This document shows positions 1,178 to 62,491 of a stretch of DNA of 64,000 nucleotides, piece by piece (position 1 is the stretch's first letter; each line of letters starts with the position of its first letter). This DNA is from Chloroflexota bacterium (GTDB taxonomy: Bacteria; Chloroflexota; Dehalococcoidia; Lucifugimonadales; GCA-2722455): the NCBI GenBank assembly GCA_002722455.1, contig PBMB01000019.1:16306-80305 (forward strand), given 5' to 3'. Position numbers and translations under genes: made by a program. The notes beneath the pieces were generated by a model, which saw nothing but the letters and a program-made list of their open reading frames with translations, ran no database searches and was not told where the DNA came from.

Positions 1178-2020
1178 TTATGCTTTTCTATTAATGTTTT
1201 TAACTTTAACAGAACGAACCAAGCGTTTATCGAAAGATTCAAAAAGATCATTCGTTACCTGACGAATACGTTCACGAGTTAAACCATATTCGTCACCAAT
1301 ATCAGACATATTCCATTTTAGACTTTCTGTGATTTCTTTCATATAAGGCAATTTACGACCTTTTTCTTTAAAACTTTCTTCTACGACTTTTTTCCATAGC
1401 TCTAACGTTAGTGATTCCAAATCTTTGAAATCAAAAGCACCTTTAATATGTTTTTTCAATATCTTTTTAAACTTCAATTCACTTACTGAAAGTTCTGTAT
1501 TTACATTTTTATACTTTTCAAAGAAAGCACGTTCTTCTTTTGATAGTAGTTCTGACTTTTCACGAATTGAATCAATATCGTTTTTAATGTCATGCACTAC
1601 GACAAACTCAATATCATTCCAATTCGCTGCTTTATCAGCTTTAAATTTCTTTGGTTTCTTTGTTGTTACTTCATAAGTAAGATTTTCTTCACCTGCTTTT
1701 TTAGTCATTACAAGGAATACTTTTCGAGTTGTTTCTAGGTCAATATTGGTTTCCATTGAATCAAACTTAGCAACAGCACGTATTTTATCAAATACAGGGC
1801 AACAGAATACTTTGTTAAATGGTTTCTCACCAATTTCTTCCATTACCATAGGGTTTAGCTTACCGTCTTGACTTTGCTTCTTCTGGTATGACGCCCACCA
1901 GTAAAAATCGTCATTAGCTTCTGTTACTGCAAACATTTGTAGGTTCTTGGGTTTTAGACCTAGTTCAAACGCTTTTGAAATTACAGGTAGGTAAGAGATC
2001 AAACGTTCTTGTGGTGACAT
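1178..2020 (-). CDS. Putative transcription factor with C-terminal sigma70 region 4-like HTH
   Basis: C-terminal MSDIGDEYGLTRERIRQV resembles sigma70 region 4.2 (xEVGxxFxVTRERIRQI); start moved to ATG 2020 behind an AAGGTT RBS; no sigma region 2 seen. Confidence 0.7.
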   Translation of the reverse strand: MSPQERLISYLPVISKAFELGLKPKNLQMFAVTEANDDFYWWASYQKKQSQDGKLNPMVMEEIGEKPFNKVFCCPVFDKIRAVAKFDSMETNIDLETTRKVFLVMTKKAGEENLTYEVTTKKPKKFKADKAANWNDIEFVVVHDIKNDIDSIREKSELLSKEERAFFEKYKNVNTELSVSELKFKKILKKHIKGAFDFKDLESLTLELWKKVVEESFKEKGRKLPYMKEITESLKWNMSDIGDEYGLTRERIRQVTNDLFESFDKRLVRSVKVKNINRKA

Positions 2021-2178
2021 AATATTAACCTTTTTTTGTTTAGGAATTAGACATAATTTATTCTTTTTGATGCATAAAGTCAAGCTTTTTATTTGACTTT
2101 ATTTCTTTTTTTTTCTTGCCTTTTTTCTTTTTCTTTAGTATTATTTACACACTTCTTAACTGAAAGAGAGATTTTATT

Positions 2179-7088: not shown

Positions 7089-7373
7089 ATGAAATTCCAT
7101 TCTGTTTCTCATTTAATTGAACAGCTTAAAGACCCAAGCCTGTTTGAAAAAATCAGAGAGTTATTTCTTTCTGGTAAAATTGGTGAATCACTTGGTAAAA
7201 GCCCTGCTGAGTTTGACGTTTTTTATATTGACACATTAGATTGTTGTTTGAAAATCAAAAACAAATCGGCTGTAGTTAATTTTGGTCGTGGTAAAGATCC
7301 TTATGGTGAAGAACCCAACCATTTTATCAAAATACCGCATGGATTTATAAATAATGAAACTATAGAACATTAA
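7089..7373 (+). CDS. Hypothetical protein
   Basis: ORF with AAGGT RBS. Confidence 0.6.
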   Translation: MKFHSVSHLIEQLKDPSLFEKIRELFLSGKIGESLGKSPAEFDVFYIDTLDCCLKIKNKSAVVNFGRGKDPYGEEPNHFIKIPHGFINNETIEH

Positions 7374-35611: not shown

Positions 35612-36628
35612 ATGTGTAAACTTGAACAATTTAAATCAGAAGCAAGTGAAAAAGGCTTAACTCTTCTTGGTAAGAGCAACAGCCCTGAATCTTATTTGTA
35701 TCGGTTTAATTCATGTGGACACACGAAAGAATACAAGCCCTATGAACTCAGAAACACTAATCCTGTCTGTAATGAGTGTAAACTCGAACAATTCAAACTT
35801 GAAGCCAACGAGAAAGGTTTAACTCTTCTTCACAAAAGTGACAAGCGAAGCCATTACTGGTATCAGTTTGATAAATGTGGTCATCAAAAGGAATATAAGC
35901 CCTCCCACGTTAGACGTAGACAGCCAACTTGTGAAAGCTGTCAAATAGAGCAATTCAAATTTGAAGCCAAAGAGAAAGGATTAACTCTTATTCGCAAAGC
36001 TGAGAAATTCGGTAATTATGTTTATCAATTTGACAAATGTGGTCATCAAAAGGAATATCAAGCAGTCCACGTTCGAAAAAAACAGCCACATTGTGAGATT
36101 TGTCAATTTGAACAATTCAAACTTGAAGCTGACCAAAAAGATATGAGTATTATAAGCAAAGGGACTAAAACAGGATATTATCTCTATCAATTTAATGAAT
36201 GTGGTCATCAAAAAGAATATCAACCTTCTGACATTCGACATAAAAGCGTCTGTTGTGAGTTCTGTGGCAATTCTCATTTCCACCAAAAAACTTATGTTTA
36301 CTTACTTCTCATACACAATGAAGAAAATTCATTCTTGAAACTTGGTATTGCTAATAATATTTTAAGCCGACAAAAGAACTACAAACTTGATAAATCTTAT
36401 ACTGTTGAAGAATTAGATTCTGTTTTAGTCGATACTAAATTCATTGCTCTTGAATATGAAAAAAACATTCATTCTAATTATACTTCAAACAACTTAGATC
36501 ACTCTATTATGAATGAAATCATGGCTTCTGGTTATACAGAGTGTTATCCTGTTATTCTCGAAAAGGCGTTACTTGCAGAAATAGACCTTATCAAGATAAA
36601 AGAAAAAGAACTTAAAAAAGTTGCCTAA
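35612..36628 (+). CDS. Zn-ribbon repeat protein with C-terminal GIY-YIG-like nuclease (homing-endonuclease-like)
   Basis: Four ~54-aa repeats EQFKxEAxEKGLTL..YQFDKCGHQKEY..CxxC; then YVYLL..FLKLGIANN..RQ..E..IH..GYTECY. Confidence 0.75.
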   Translation: MCKLEQFKSEASEKGLTLLGKSNSPESYLYRFNSCGHTKEYKPYELRNTNPVCNECKLEQFKLEANEKGLTLLHKSDKRSHYWYQFDKCGHQKEYKPSHVRRRQPTCESCQIEQFKFEAKEKGLTLIRKAEKFGNYVYQFDKCGHQKEYQAVHVRKKQPHCEICQFEQFKLEADQKDMSIISKGTKTGYYLYQFNECGHQKEYQPSDIRHKSVCCEFCGNSHFHQKTYVYLLLIHNEENSFLKLGIANNILSRQKNYKLDKSYTVEELDSVLVDTKFIALEYEKNIHSNYTSNNLDHSIMNEIMASGYTECYPVILEKALLAEIDLIKIKEKELKKVA

Positions 36629-42629: not shown

Positions 42630-43592
42630 TTATCTTTCTATCACGAAAAATTCTGCTATTTCGAGAGTTTTCTCTGATAATGATTTTGGTAATGTATCAA
42701 ATACCTCCCCTAACAAATCACCTTCTTCATTTTGGTATTCAAAATATGGAGCTGTCATTACCTCAAAGCCTTCAAACAGATCATTGTCCTTACCATAAAG
42801 CCAAGACCAAAACTCTTTCTCTGCCCCTGCCTGTTTCATTTGAGCAATCATTTCTTCTGGCTTTATAAATTGACCTTCTTCATTAGTTAAAATCCAAGTT
42901 CCAGATAAAGCGCAGTCTATTTCGCCTATTGTGTAAAACACCGTAGAATCGCTTTCTAGTTCGTGTCCAAACAAATGAACAGCCTTGTAGTCTGAAATAG
43001 AATCGTTTTTGATACTTTCATAGTTGAAGCTAACCATTTCTTCAAAAAGAATATAACAGCTTCGAAATGCGTCTAATTCAGAACCATTATCAAAATATAA
43101 ATCGGCTACAATCCCTTCGTCTGTTGTTTTCACTTCAACAAAATGCTCTTTATCTAATTTGATATGCCAACCGTTCCAAACGTCTTGATCTGTTAGCATC
43201 TTCTCAAAAGAACCAAAAGACAGATCTTTTATGAAACCTTCAGAGACAATATTTTCGATAGAAAAACCCATATCTTTTGAAATACCGAGTTCTTTATCGT
43301 TTATTGCCACATAGTAACAAAATTCTTCTTCTTCGCTAAAACACTCAAATTGTTTTGTGTTTACGACCAAAGGTAAATAAAGAATACCTGATATAACGAC
43401 AGGAGAGCGTTCTTCTAGGTTTTTAGATAGTTTGTTTAAGGGTTTGTTGAATAAACTTCTAGATAGCGCATTTTGCGCTTCTGATAGCGTTTTAAATTTT
43501 GATTGTTTTTTTAATTTCTTCGCTTCGTTTTTAAGCGTAGATAGTGGTTTGCCGTTTGGCAGAAATGTGAAGTTTTTAGTTTTGTTTTGCAT
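42630..43592 (-). CDS. Hypothetical protein with N-terminal 'glyoxalase superfamily' (Glyoxalase_8)-like helical domain
   Basis: LSTLKNEAKKLKKQSKFKTLSEAQNALSRSLFNKPLNKL. Confidence 0.65.
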   Translation of the reverse strand: MQNKTKNFTFLPNGKPLSTLKNEAKKLKKQSKFKTLSEAQNALSRSLFNKPLNKLSKNLEERSPVVISGILYLPLVVNTKQFECFSEEEEFCYYVAINDKELGISKDMGFSIENIVSEGFIKDLSFGSFEKMLTDQDVWNGWHIKLDKEHFVEVKTTDEGIVADLYFDNGSELDAFRSCYILFEEMVSFNYESIKNDSISDYKAVHLFGHELESDSTVFYTIGEIDCALSGTWILTNEEGQFIKPEEMIAQMKQAGAEKEFWSWLYGKDNDLFEGFEVMTAPYFEYQNEEGDLLGEVFDTLPKSLSEKTLEIAEFFVIER

Positions 43593-43740
43593 AATGAGTT
43601 CCTATTATTTTGCAATACGAAACAGCCCATAGTTCTTAATGCTTAGAAAAACATTAATGTTCGTGTTTGTTTATTTTGTTTTACTTCTCGTATCTAATAC
43701 TTTACCAAGTGGGCTTGGAGGCTTAGAAGACAACCTACTC
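43593..43740 (-). ncRNA. Candidate structured 5' leader RNA (copy A)
   Basis: Promoter TTGTAC-17-TAATAT, then AGGTTG-N7-AGCC-N8-CACTTGGTAAA; long-range AGCCCA/TGGGCT stem; shared with 60275. Confidence 0.55.
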
Positions 43741-43833
43741 ACTAATATTAACTCAAGATTATTTTTAGTACAAGCTTTTTTATTGTTGCTTTTTTGTTTG
43801 TTTTTTAGTATTATATGCGTATCTTAAAAACAA

Positions 43834-44085
43834 ATGAGAAATCACATGAGTAAAACAACAACCTTGAGCAGTCACAAATGTTTTAACTGTAAAGAATCTG
43901 ATAAATATCACCTTGATGACTCATTTGGTGAAAATTGCTCTCAATGTTCAGAAAATTCTCTTTGTGAAGAATGTCTATTGGACAAAGAATACCCGCATGT
44001 TGTTTCTCATAGTAACCAACATTGTTCTTTTAAAGCCATTGCTCGTGGAAAAACAAAAAAAGAAGCTGTTGAAGCTTGGGAATAA
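43834..44085 (+). CDS. Cys-rich protein with Lar-like C-terminal motif
   Basis: Several CxxC; GKTKKEAVEAW. Confidence 0.55.
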   Translation: MRNHMSKTTTLSSHKCFNCKESDKYHLDDSFGENCSQCSENSLCEECLLDKEYPHVVSHSNQHCSFKAIARGKTKKEAVEAWE

Positions 44086-51920: not shown

Positions 51921-52445
51921 ATGTCAAAACAAGCTAAACAATTCGCTATTGCTAAATCGTCAAATGGCACAATTGGTCTAATTACTTCAAAAGAAATGGT
52001 AGACCATACTTACCCAGATCAAACAGAACCGACTCAGGTTTGGAAAGGCGTTATCATCCAACCTAATACATTTACGGGACGTAATGGCTCGATCATCGAA
52101 GCAAAAGCAGGTGGTCTATGGACTTCTTCTAACCCAGAAGTTATTGGCTATGCCGACCCTGAAATGATTGCACAGCTTGTGCAAGACTCTAATGAAGTTC
52201 AGCAGTTCTCTATCGCTAAATCATCAAATGGCACTGTCGGTCTAATCACTTCAAAAGAAATGGTAGATCATATCTATCCTGACAAAGAAGAAGCAACTAA
52301 GGTCTGGAAAGGTGTTATCATTCAGCCTAATACCTTCACTGTTGGCGAAGACAAGGTTATTGAAGCAAAAGCGGGTGGTCTATGGACTTCTTCAAATCCA
52401 CAAGTCGTTGGTCATATTGATCCTGCAATGATTGAAGCTGCTTAA
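51921..52445 (+). CDS. Tandem two-domain hypothetical protein
   Basis: Two near-identical ~85-aa units QFxIAKSSNGTxGLITSKEMVDH...GGLWTSSNP. Confidence 0.75.
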   Translation: MSKQAKQFAIAKSSNGTIGLITSKEMVDHTYPDQTEPTQVWKGVIIQPNTFTGRNGSIIEAKAGGLWTSSNPEVIGYADPEMIAQLVQDSNEVQQFSIAKSSNGTVGLITSKEMVDHIYPDKEEATKVWKGVIIQPNTFTVGEDKVIEAKAGGLWTSSNPQVVGHIDPAMIEAA

Positions 52446-60149: not shown

Positions 60150-60239
60150 TGCCAATTTAACCAATTAAACGCCCTGTTACGCAGGGCGTTTTTTTTTATT
60201 TTTTTTCCTTGCTTTTCTTTGTCTACTAACCTATAATTA

Positions 60240-60414
60240 CTCTTAGATTAAGCAAACAAATAAGCCTTAGTCCAAGGTTGACAACCTAGCCGCTCTTACA
60301 CTTGGTAAATCGTCTTTATACTACAAAAAAAGAAACTTTCACTTTATCTTAATTGATATTTGAAAGCTAACGAAAAGAGCAAGTTTATCAAATCAAACTT
60401 TTAGGAAAAACAAA
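60240..60414 (+). ncRNA. Candidate structured 5' leader RNA (copy B)
   Basis: AGGTTG 60275-N7-AGCC-N7-CACTTGGTAAA 60299; GCTCTT 60292/AAGAGC 60375 stem; inner CTTTCA/TGAAAG hairpin. Confidence 0.55.
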
Positions 60415-60984
60415 ATGAAAGCTAAAAATCTATTTTCTCTACTTACTCGCAAAGAACTAACCAACATCGCTACCGAAATTGCTAACTGCAAAGTTCACGG
60501 TATGAAAGTAAAAGCAAATCAATTTATTGAAGCTATCGCACAAATGAACGGCAAAGGTTCAGAAGCTTTACTTAATGATATGAATAATGAATCATTGTTC
60601 TCGTTTAATGACTTACACGCTATCTTTGACCATTCTTCTGGTGAAACTGCACTTGCTGCTATTGGCTTCTCTATATCTGTTAACGGTTTCTGGGATCGCA
60701 GTAAAATCCGTGTGTGTGAAGGCACATTTGAAGAGAACTCTATCTTTATGCGTGATGTCCGTGTTGAATTTACGGGTTCTTCTAATGGCGTTGATAATGA
60801 TATTGACCTATCAACCAATGAACGCAATAGAAACTTACGTATGGCTATCAACGCAGCCTTTGAGCTTGCAGAAACAATCAACTCTAACAAAAGACAAATC
60901 AAAAGTGAAAAAGATCTTCAAAAGCTAATTCAGGAAGAATGGGAAATTCGACATATTCAAAAAGAAAAAGCAACTGTCTTATAA
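60415..60984 (+). CDS. Hypothetical protein with N-terminal Glyoxalase_8-like helical domain
   Basis: LTRKELTNIATEIA..KVKANQFIEAIAQMNGKGSEALL. Confidence 0.65.
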   Translation: MKAKNLFSLLTRKELTNIATEIANCKVHGMKVKANQFIEAIAQMNGKGSEALLNDMNNESLFSFNDLHAIFDHSSGETALAAIGFSISVNGFWDRSKIRVCEGTFEENSIFMRDVRVEFTGSSNGVDNDIDLSTNERNRNLRMAINAAFELAETINSNKRQIKSEKDLQKLIQEEWEIRHIQKEKATVL

Positions 60985-61669: not shown

Positions 61670-61730
61670 ACCAATAAGATTTAGTGTTGATTTTTGTTTT
61701 TAAACTTGATAATATATAGTCTCTTTCCTA

Positions 61731-61994
61731 ATGACAAACAAGGTTATTGAAATGATCAAGAATCAAGCAAAAATTGAAGAATTCCAAATTGACGTTCGCA
61801 CTACACTAGACCCAGTGTGTGAGTATTCAGACGCTTATAAAAAACTTCAACATATTCGAAGCGAAGCAATGAAAACGCTTGAAGCAACAGAAGAAGAAGT
61901 TGCTGAACTAATGGAATTACATTTCGGAAACTGTCTTGAAATCGATGACGCACTTATTGCAATCTACCCTGAACAATTCGGTGATCGTGAATAA
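61731..61994 (+). CDS. Hypothetical protein, duplicate copy 1
   Basis: Ends HFGNCLEIDDALIAIYPEQFGDRE; true start may be the second Met behind AAGGTT. Confidence 0.7.
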   Translation: MTNKVIEMIKNQAKIEEFQIDVRTTLDPVCEYSDAYKKLQHIRSEAMKTLEATEEEVAELMELHFGNCLEIDDALIAIYPEQFGDRE

Positions 61995-62227
61995 CAAAGC
62001 GTATACATAATCAAACTTAAAGAGCTTTTTGTTTCGCACACCAAGCTCTTTTTTGTTATAATATCACCATAAAAAATAATAGAGAGATTGCAAAATAATT
62101 AAACTATTCAACACTTTTTTGAATTCCCTAAAACTTCTTCAATATTTTATAAAATTATTCAATTTGTTTTTTTTGTTTTAGTATTGATTTTTGTTTTTAA
62201 ACTTGATAATATATAGTCTCTTTCCTA

Positions 62228-62491
62228 ATGGCAAACAAGGTTACTAAAATGATTAACAATCCAGAAAAAATTGAAAATTTTCAAATTAATGTTCGTATCG
62301 CACTAGACCCAATTTCTGATTATTCTGAAGCTTATGGAAAGCTTCAAGAAATCCGAAATGAAGCAATTGAAACACTTGACGCCACAAATGAAGAAGTCGC
62401 TGAAATGATGGAATCTCATTTTGGAAATTGCCTTGAAATCGATGACGCACTTATTGCAATCTACCCTGAACAATTCGGTGATCGTGAATAA
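62228..62491 (+). CDS. Hypothetical protein, duplicate copy 2
   Basis: C-terminus identical to copy 1. Confidence 0.7.
   Translation: MANKVTKMINNPEKIENFQINVRIALDPISDYSEAYGKLQEIRNEAIETLDATNEEVAEMMESHFGNCLEIDDALIAIYPEQFGDRE

Follow-up and report, generated by a model that had tools for sequence, protein, structure and literature searches.

Two orphan genes of a Chloroflexota contig share a long, conserved 5' leader that is a candidate cis-regulatory RNA

The described systems closest to the locus reported here are of several kinds. Orphan cis-regulatory leader motifs, known from comparative genomics and Rfam, are long 5' leaders in which conserved single-stranded nucleotides are framed by short helices, and each is tied to a narrow gene family with its partner or ligand unnamed. 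The leader pseudoknot of phage T4 gene 32 and the hairpin of gene 43 are autogenous translational operators, the 5' stem-loop of the ompA leader stabilises its mRNA, the lambda nut boxA/boxB and HK022 put RNAs act in processive antitermination, and type III toxin-antitoxin (TA) loci such as ToxIN carry tandem direct repeats of an antitoxin RNA upstream of the toxin gene. Here we analysed a 64,000-nt stretch (hereafter the window) of contig PBMB01000019.1 from the Chloroflexota assembly GCA_002722455.1, in which two genes without family assignment, gene A (42630..43592, minus strand, 320 aa) and gene B (60415..60984, plus strand, 189 aa), are preceded by leaders that carry the same motif. The leader is real, conserved, unusually long and common to two unrelated orphan genes. 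As in the orphan motifs, it is a long 5' leader tied to a narrow gene family, with conserved nucleotides that are predicted to lie unpaired between short helices and with its partner or ligand unnamed; it differs from them in falling outside all 4227 Rfam 15 models, in preceding two unrelated proteins and in that covariation is not established. We consider the leader a credible candidate for a new cis-regulatory RNA, and put at about 0.5 the probability that a single conserved 5' leader RNA, cis-acting, outside Rfam and most likely read by a shared factor, is present here in two copies.

Pattern search found the composite motif AGGTTG-N7-AGCC-N7/8-CACTTGGTAAA exactly twice in the window (block 1 hereafter), as AGGTTG-TCTTCTA-AGCC-TCCAAGCC-CACTTGGTAAA ahead of gene A (43736-43701, minus strand) and as AGGTTG-ACAACCT-AGCC-GCTCTTA-CACTTGGTAAA ahead of gene B (60275-60309, plus strand). 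The distance from motif end to start codon was 108 nt in A and 105 nt in B. Neither a search allowing up to two mismatches nor one with relaxed regular expressions found a further copy in the 2.48 Mb assembly. The leaders themselves, ~145 nt in A and 171 nt in B, were five to six times the local median. This was estimated with a promoter script (TTG-N16-18-TATAAT-like) that found a site for 45 of 91 open reading frames (ORFs), giving a median implied leader of 28 nt; only three of the 45 exceeded 100 nt, gene B among them. An earlier reading of the window by a model that saw only its letters and translated ORFs (the first-pass annotation) had reported both the shared motif and the exceptional length of the two leaders, and both observations held. 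It had also noted a stray CACTTGGTAAA at 7189 within a coding sequence, which indeed falls in ORF 7089-7373.

The strength of the match depends on how it is measured. The 11-mer CACTTGGTAAA alone is at chance level, with four matches at up to one mismatch against 1.56 expected and four reached by 7 of 100 shuffles. For the composite motif, the result that none of 100 shuffles reach it is circular, the pattern having been derived from these same two copies. A fairer test is the local alignment of both whole leaders against shuffles of both under four scoring schemes. The alignment of A with B was equalled by 9, 1 and 1 of 1000 shuffles in the three gap-tolerant schemes and by 64 of 1000 in the strict scheme, and it runs collinearly from AGGTTG through to the ribosome-binding site. 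The marginal strict alignment and the chance-level 11-mer are what would be expected if the likeness had no function and were a remnant of past duplication or recombination between the leaders, combined with chance. However, the identity lies in separate blocks with diverged spacers, not in one contiguous patch, and the A-type leader is kept where the proteins are only 29-47% identical, so we regard this explanation as highly improbable.

Matches to the motif elsewhere were those of chance. The exact composite pattern gave three matches in genome contigs, all in long open frames of GC-rich unrelated genomes (about eight expected by chance on our own estimate), one in metagenome contigs, at the end of a GC-rich coding region, and none in viral contigs. 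Among 400 genomes of the class, allowing up to two mismatches, 12 matches in 11 genomes compared with nine for a reversed control, which is chance level. A relaxed 14-base pattern, run on the assembly itself and three plasmid records, had exact matches only in the three known copies (A, B and the Photobacterium copy described below), and with one mismatch its frequency was about that of controls. Searches of plasmids and phages with the leaders (blastn) returned chance fragments only, and a full-text literature search returned nothing relevant, its motif matches all being primers or small interfering RNAs (siRNAs).

Both leaders lie downstream of a promoter-like site. The predicted promoter of gene B (60209..60237, plus strand; TTGCTT, 17 nt, TATAAT; predicted start near 60244) follows the terminator of the upstream gene (60167..60191 plus a T run, plus strand), which was identified by the terminator scan. 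The candidate promoter of gene A (43745..43773, minus strand; TTGTAC, 17 nt, TAATAT) was read by eye and would have transcription begin near 43738, with the motif following after 2-3 nt; it was missed by both the consensus scan and the script, its -10 agreeing with TATAAT at four of six positions. A perfect TATAAT at 43815-43810 has no usable -35 and would still keep the motif within the transcript. RNA runs contain 21-50% of the words sampled from 43400-43900. The terminator scan found no terminator-like site within leader A or leader B, and transcription attenuation is therefore unlikely. A reading of the motif as a promoter in its own right, of the sigma-70 type or for another sigma factor, was rejected on spacing: GGTAAA lies 23-24 nt from AGGTTG and 12-14 nt from AGCC, against 16-18 nt between sigma-70 hexamers. 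On the motif, the consensus promoter scan returned nothing in A and only CTTACA-16-TATACT in B, which is not common to A. Divergent from gene A, an 83-aa cysteine-rich ORF with several CxxC pairs (43834-44085, plus strand) has a promoter that overlaps the promoter region of A; it has no family match and is absent beside the Photobacterium homologue of A.

A position just downstream of a promoter is also that of the lambda nut and HK022 put RNAs. Leader B carries at 60290-60300 (plus strand) a stretch, CGCTCTTACAC, in which CGCUCUUACAC resembles the boxA element. In contrast to nut and put, A and Photobacterium have no boxA-like stretch, and each leader precedes a single gene. The 8-mer CGCTCTTA occurs 24 times in the assembly, about chance by our own estimate, and no boxA of a ribosomal RNA leader was found in the assembly for comparison.

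On sequence evidence, the A-type leader is conserved far outside this genome, in distant relatives of gene A. Homologues of gene A were recovered as seven clusters by a word-indexed search and as 68 representatives by an exhaustive profile search, and those of gene B as two clusters; the sources were marine and plankton assemblies. Two of the A homologues, P0004 (369 aa, 47% identical to A) and P0039 (356 aa), have N-terminal extensions of 51 and 45 aa, respectively, that correspond to read-through of the leader, and the extension is present in five of the six members of the P0004 cluster. The extensions read PPSPLGKVLDT (P0004) and PPSPLGEALDA (P0039), and the leader frame of A reads PPSPLGKVLDT followed by stop codons. 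The longer readings are ..RLTSQPPSPLGKVLDTE.. in P0004 and MSQPPSPLGEALDAM.. in P0039, with ..SRLSSKPPSPLGKVLDTRSKTK and then a stop in the start-codon frame of A's leader; farther along, ..LWAVSDCK.. of P0004 corresponds to A's UGGGCUGUUUCGUAUUGCAAA in another frame. Block 1 is retained within these translations (..RLTSQPPSPLGKVLDT.. in P0004, MSQPPSPLGEALDA.. in P0039). From the two read-through extensions it therefore appears that block 1 is conserved nearly letter for letter while the proteins that carry them are 35-47% identical to A; in A itself block 1 is probably non-coding. Back-translated, the P0004 extension was compatible with A at 107 informative positions and incompatible at 19, and that of P0039 compatible at 89 and incompatible at 16, compatibility of this kind being a weaker measure than identity.

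The third copy for which leader DNA was available lies on a 599-kb plasmid of Photobacterium damselae, upstream of a hypothetical protein 29% identical over 94% of A. The layout is an upstream terminator, TTGCGT-N16-TATAAT and then a ~159-nt leader that begins GGGTTC-TCGCTC-AGCC-C-CCAAG-TTCTCCAA-GGTAAAG, with UGGGCU farther down, giving the motif the form GGTT-N7-AGCC-N-CCAAG-N8-GGTAAAG. In three schemes, the alignment of this leader with A was equalled by 88, 6 and 26 of 1000 shuffles. The proposal of the first-pass annotation that the motif would stand upstream of homologous domains was thus borne out for the A family (P0004, P0039 and Photobacterium). No homologues with accompanying DNA were found in 400 genomes of the order, 150 relatives, viral contigs or JGI metagenome contigs; a plasmid search for homologues with leader DNA returned the P. 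damselae record only, and a search with the read-through part of P0004 returned only itself. The nulls in the genomes of the order and the 150 relatives say little about the range of the leader, because the taxonomic relatives may not be the relatives of this contig (see below). Two further candidates were rejected on these copies. An upstream ORF or leader peptide was discarded because the open frames over block 1 differ among A, B and Photobacterium, and site-specific inversion between two inverted copies was discarded because the Photobacterium copy is single and sits at the same leader position.

Folding with ViennaRNA placed two helices, P1 and P2, in the minimum free energy (MFE) structure of both A and B, with pair probabilities of 0.56-1.0; the GGTT/AGCC, AGCCCA/TGGGCT and GCTCTT/AAGAGC pairings described by the first-pass annotation are all part of these folds. 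The P1 hairpin of A (43720..43735, minus strand) pairs GGUU (43735-43732) with AGCC (43723-43720) around an 8-nt loop, with an outer A-U pair possible and pair probabilities of 0.97-0.99, and that of B (60276..60291, plus strand) pairs GGUU (60276-60279) with AGCC (60288-60291) at 0.56-0.57. At the outer position of P1, A has an A-U pair, Photobacterium a G-C pair and B none. P2 is a long-range helix, AGCCCA (43715-43710) with UGGGCU (43629-43624) in A (43624..43715, minus strand; pair probabilities 0.71-0.98) and GCUCUU (60292-60297) with AAGAGC (60375-60380) in B (60292..60380, plus strand; 0.81-1.0). The ~80 nt enclosed in A include CUUGGUAAAG (43709-43700), which is unpaired, and a 9-bp hairpin (43657-43636); in B, P2 surrounds CUUGGUAAAU (60301-60310) together with a hairpin at 60336-60366. 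Immediately downstream of P2, the MFE fold of A contains a hairpin (43598..43623, minus strand) that pairs GUUUC with GGAAC of the ribosome-binding site AGGAAC (43603-43598); sequestering of the ribosome-binding site is thus predicted in A, with no equivalent in the MFE fold of B. Back-translation of the P0004 and P0039 read-through would also allow the block UGGGCUGUUUCG.. of this 3' hairpin. Leader B alone has an extra 5' hairpin (60246..60272, plus strand; GAUUAAG/CUUAGUC).

The predicted anatomy of the element would thus be a P1 hairpin (GGUU/AGCC with a 7-8 nt loop), which opens the transcript in A and Photobacterium and comes after one extra hairpin in B, followed by a conserved unpaired stretch YNNGGUAAA(G/U) and by a 6-bp P2. 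The 5' strand of P2 would lie 3-6 nt ahead of GGUAAA and its 3' strand 31-37 nt ahead of the start codon, and the ~80-nt domain between them would be variable and contain an inner hairpin. Each of the three copies has its own P2 sequence, yet the strands stay complementary. When the 13 nt before GGUAAA were searched against the stretch 27-46 nt before the start codon in 5000 shuffles, the best helix was reached by 32 in A (AGCCCA/UGGGCU), 43 in B (GCUCUU/AAGAGC) and 413 in Photobacterium (AGUUCU/AGAACU). With the P2 3' strands aligned (AUGGGC/AAGAGC), A and B differ at both bases of two of the five pairs, with pairing kept. MAFFT-based consensus folding misaligned B and recovered P1 alone as consensus. 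The view of the first-pass annotation that no Rfam family could be named for the leaders stood: Rfam 15 gave no match at gathering score in the 64-kb window, and none of 18 weak matches at E<=10 in the two 3-kb loci overlapped a leader, the nearest being on the upstream terminator of B. Its proposed crossing pairings are present, GAUACGAGA/UUUCGUAUU in A (from the helix list) and UUGGUAAA/UUUAUCAA in B (by hand), but they fall at non-equivalent positions, and we did not count them as evidence of structure because the segments are non-equivalent in A and B.

As to mechanism, a factor common to both genes is favoured because two unrelated proteins share the element; control by each protein of its own leader, a riboswitch, an operator in the DNA and a passive stabiliser were all ranked below it. 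The P1/GGUAAAG platform would be the binding site of this factor, most simply a protein of the same gene array, and its binding would set translation initiation or mRNA lifetime; in A, control could run through the P2-adjacent hairpin that pairs with the ribosome-binding site.

A small molecule could take the place of such a factor if the P1/P2 junction with GGUAAAG were a riboswitch that exposes or hides the ribosome-binding site. In its favour are the length and conservation of the leader and, beside P2 in A, alternative pairings, GUUUC with the ribosome-binding site or UUUCGUAUU with the upstream GAUACGAGA. Set against this, the conserved core is small and there are only two copies per genome, the predicted fold of B does not sequester its ribosome-binding site, neither leader has a terminator, the genes have no metabolic or transport signature, and no Rfam riboswitch matched even at E<=10. 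We therefore consider a riboswitch very unlikely.

Two other explanations draw on the closeness of the element to the predicted start. The first holds that the leader is constitutive and sensor-less, its 5' hairpins protecting the mRNA from 5'-end-dependent decay or acting as a translational enhancer, and that it was simply inherited with the gene. In all three copies a hairpin lies 2-4 nt past the predicted start (P1 in A and Photobacterium, the extra hairpin in B), which, together with the unusually long leader, recalls the ompA leader and its hairpin within a few nt of the 5' end. However, a stabilising hairpin needs no conserved sequence, so the exact A/B 11-mer and the unpaired GGUAAAG would go unexplained; here, unlike in ompA, a specific unpaired sequence and a long-range helix are also conserved, and about 90 neighbouring genes have no such leader. 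This explanation is unlikely in our judgement. To a similar degree we doubt the second, in which a transcription factor binds block 1 as double-stranded DNA just past the promoter and blocks RNA polymerase. Block 1 does begin 2-5 nt past the predicted start in A and Photobacterium, and A's block 1 contains the inverted repeat CCAAG-N4-CTTGG, but this repeat is missing in B and Photobacterium and the block of B lies ~31 nt past its predicted start. Moreover, a DNA site does not explain the second conserved block, UGGGCUGUUUCG.., which is complementary to block 1 from ~75 nt downstream, and P1 requires a U-G pair that forms on the sense strand only.

Several results weigh against the view that the leaders are one structured, factor-bound RNA. 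The promoters are predictions, and for A the -10 keeps four of six positions. Leader DNA was available for three copies only (A, B and P. damselae), too few for a statistical test of covariation, and these copies are unequally alike: A and Photobacterium fail the strict scheme (826 of 1000 shuffles), and B and Photobacterium are not alike beyond chance (109-891 of 1000). The 'invariant' core varies, P0039 being compatible with GGUGAAG instead of GGUAAAG. The P2 search windows were picked after the helices had been seen, and wider windows gave 107 (A), 367 (Photobacterium) and 111 (B) of 2000 shuffles; the P2 5' strands, moreover, align only if displaced by 4-5 nt against the conserved blocks on either side. 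The MFE z-scores, -0.98 (A), -0.59 (B) and +0.47 (Photobacterium), were not significant against shuffles, and in Photobacterium the P1 plus P2 model has pair probabilities near 0 and lies 5.4 kcal/mol above the MFE. The analysis found no candidate for the binding factor. Taken together, the structural support for a leader RNA is suggestive but thin.

The proteins encoded behind the leaders provide a further point of comparison. Neither A nor B had a family above cut-off in Pfam, PHROGs or NCBIfam, PADLOC returned no family for either, and a PDB sequence search and the ESM Atlas gave nothing usable on their function. The AlphaFold2 model of A was confident, with a mean predicted local distance difference test (pLDDT) score of 94.1, and comprises a short strand, three helices (17-29, 36-48, 52-61) and two beta-rich parts. 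No clear solved-structure neighbour of the whole model was found with Foldseek (template modelling score about 0.1), and in a Foldseek-independent (VIA) structure search the best Z of 4.5 was below the level that tool treats as meaningful; the modelled protein is a candidate for a new fold. The first ~80 residues of A are its most conserved part, with 31 of 61 columns invariant in the N-terminal ~64 residues, which in the model form the strand and three lysine-rich helices. This ~80-residue module occurs with other C-termini in P0078 and P0085, and behind an extra N-terminal domain in P0061, P0076, P0086 and P0092. In B the first 45 residues are best conserved, and its AlphaFold2 model was unreliable (pLDDT 48.7). 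Residues 44-165 of B are 34-37% identical to hypothetical proteins on ~0.9 Mb Vibrio plasmids, where the homologue lies 19 nt behind its neighbour gene and has no long leader. On these V. vulnificus and V. parahaemolyticus plasmids it belongs to a conserved series of small genes (DUF4942, two hypotheticals, the B homologue, zf-TFIIB, and YopX or a hypothetical). Since homologues of the C-terminal part of B lie there, orphan genes of the window have relatives on Vibrionaceae megaplasmids.

The first-pass annotation had supposed that A and B begin with related N-terminal domains resembling the Glyoxalase_8 N-terminus. Neither part survived: BLASTP gave no N-terminal alignment between A and B, hhalign of the two families returned a probability of 0.12%, and there was no Pfam match to Glyoxalase_8 at E<=10 in either N-terminus, nor at E<=1 in 27 members of the A family, although HMMER filters may conceal very weak matches of this kind. 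With no relation found between the N-termini and no likeness to Glyoxalase_8, the proposed module of an RNA plus an RNA-binding domain loses its basis. The idea of a module carrying variable effectors fares better within the A family, where the ~80-residue module does join other C-termini, but does not extend across A and B. The alternative of a type III TA-like pair also lacked support. As in ToxIN, a protein gene would be immediately preceded by a non-coding RNA, and the region looks mobile; unlike ToxIN, there is no terminator between RNA and gene and no PADLOC match, and the leaders contain no tandem repeats, Tandem Repeats Finder (score 30) having reported only T-rich low-complexity arrays outside them.

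Autogenous control, in which each protein would bind its own leader through an N-terminal helical module and repress its own translation, gains some support from these protein families. The lysine-rich N-terminus of A is its best conserved part and recurs with other C-termini (P0078, P0085), the first 45 residues of B are likewise its best conserved, and leader and module occur together in A, P0004, P0039 and the Photobacterium homologue. The locus also resembles the T4 operators in its 5' element, which is predicted to be structured, in the A-rich stretch with little structure that separates this element from the ribosome-binding site in A and B, and in lying within an array of small, separately transcribed genes. 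Yet the same RNA block precedes two proteins whose N-termini are not detectably related, no nucleic-acid-binding family or fold was found for A or B, and the model of B is too poor for comparison. In contrast to the T4 operators, no pseudoknot is conserved between the leader copies, one element serves two unrelated proteins, and nucleic-acid binding by A and B is not indicated. We judge autogenous control distinctly unlikely, and a factor common to both genes remains the preferred explanation.

The setting of the two genes is unusual in itself. The window has a G+C content of 31% and is filled by ~100 small genes, chiefly on the plus strand, nearly all of which lacked family matches (92 ORFs searched in Pfam; 59 in PHROGs). 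Repeat analysis revealed that most intergenic spacers contain a hairpin, a T run and then TTG-N17-TATAAT, and the genes of the window therefore appear to be transcribed separately. The same style extends over all 116 kb of the contig, whose small genes lie mostly on one strand; most have a TTG-N17-TATAAT promoter and a hairpin terminator to themselves, and hardly any has a family. Its few Pfam matches are MCP, methyltransferase, trypsin, HD, Ogg, NUDIX, AdoMet decarboxylase, dCMP deaminase and metallophosphatase. Across the assembly, contigs at 26-31.5% G+C had 1-6 TTG-N17-TATAAT sites per 10 kb, and contigs at 32-36% G+C, where rpoB lies, had 0-0.7. The low-G+C group comprises nine contigs of about 1.2 Mb (C1, C2, C11, C12, C15, C19, C21, C22, C25), four of which carry all six MCP (chemoreceptor) genes. 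Neither terminase nor ParB was found in the assembly. The assembly bin looks like two mixed populations, and the contig of the window may belong to a replicon or organism different from that of the marker genes.

Other features of the window were recorded alongside. Tandem paralogous genes of 87 aa lie at 61731-61994 and 62228-62491, and the segments 61680-61979 and 62177-62476, which include upstream regions, are 85% identical over 300 nt. ORF 35612-36628, which matches PHROG 681 'endonuclease', contains four head-to-tail 162-nt (54-aa) repeats that are 63-75% identical (35615-36262), and ORF 51921-52445 contains a 247-nt internal duplication that is 77% identical (51924-52434). A 301-aa ORF (1178-2083, minus strand) matches Sigma70_r4 weakly (E 8e-4), short of the cut-off; should this be a genuine sigma-like factor, the array may have its own kind of promoter.

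A broader reading would make the leader a portable riboregulatory cassette of giant orphan-gene arrays in marine bacteria, that is, a new RNA class with a P1/GGUAAAG/P2 core that moved between unrelated genes, is read by a dedicated factor or ligand and co-switches a few genes of the array; we hold this to be doubtful, though conceivable. Should the structure fail, what remains would be an ordinary conserved leader sequence of a small gene family, and gene A would in either case add a confidently modelled protein with no clear neighbour among solved structures. About 70 protein clusters with upstream DNA in public assemblies offer a clear test set. If the structure is true, the leader would be an undescribed cis-regulatory RNA with a small, well-defined core. 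It would also offer a first way into the control of expression in very large arrays whose orphan genes are each transcribed separately; such arrays occur on Vibrionaceae megaplasmids too, and the function of almost no gene in them is known.

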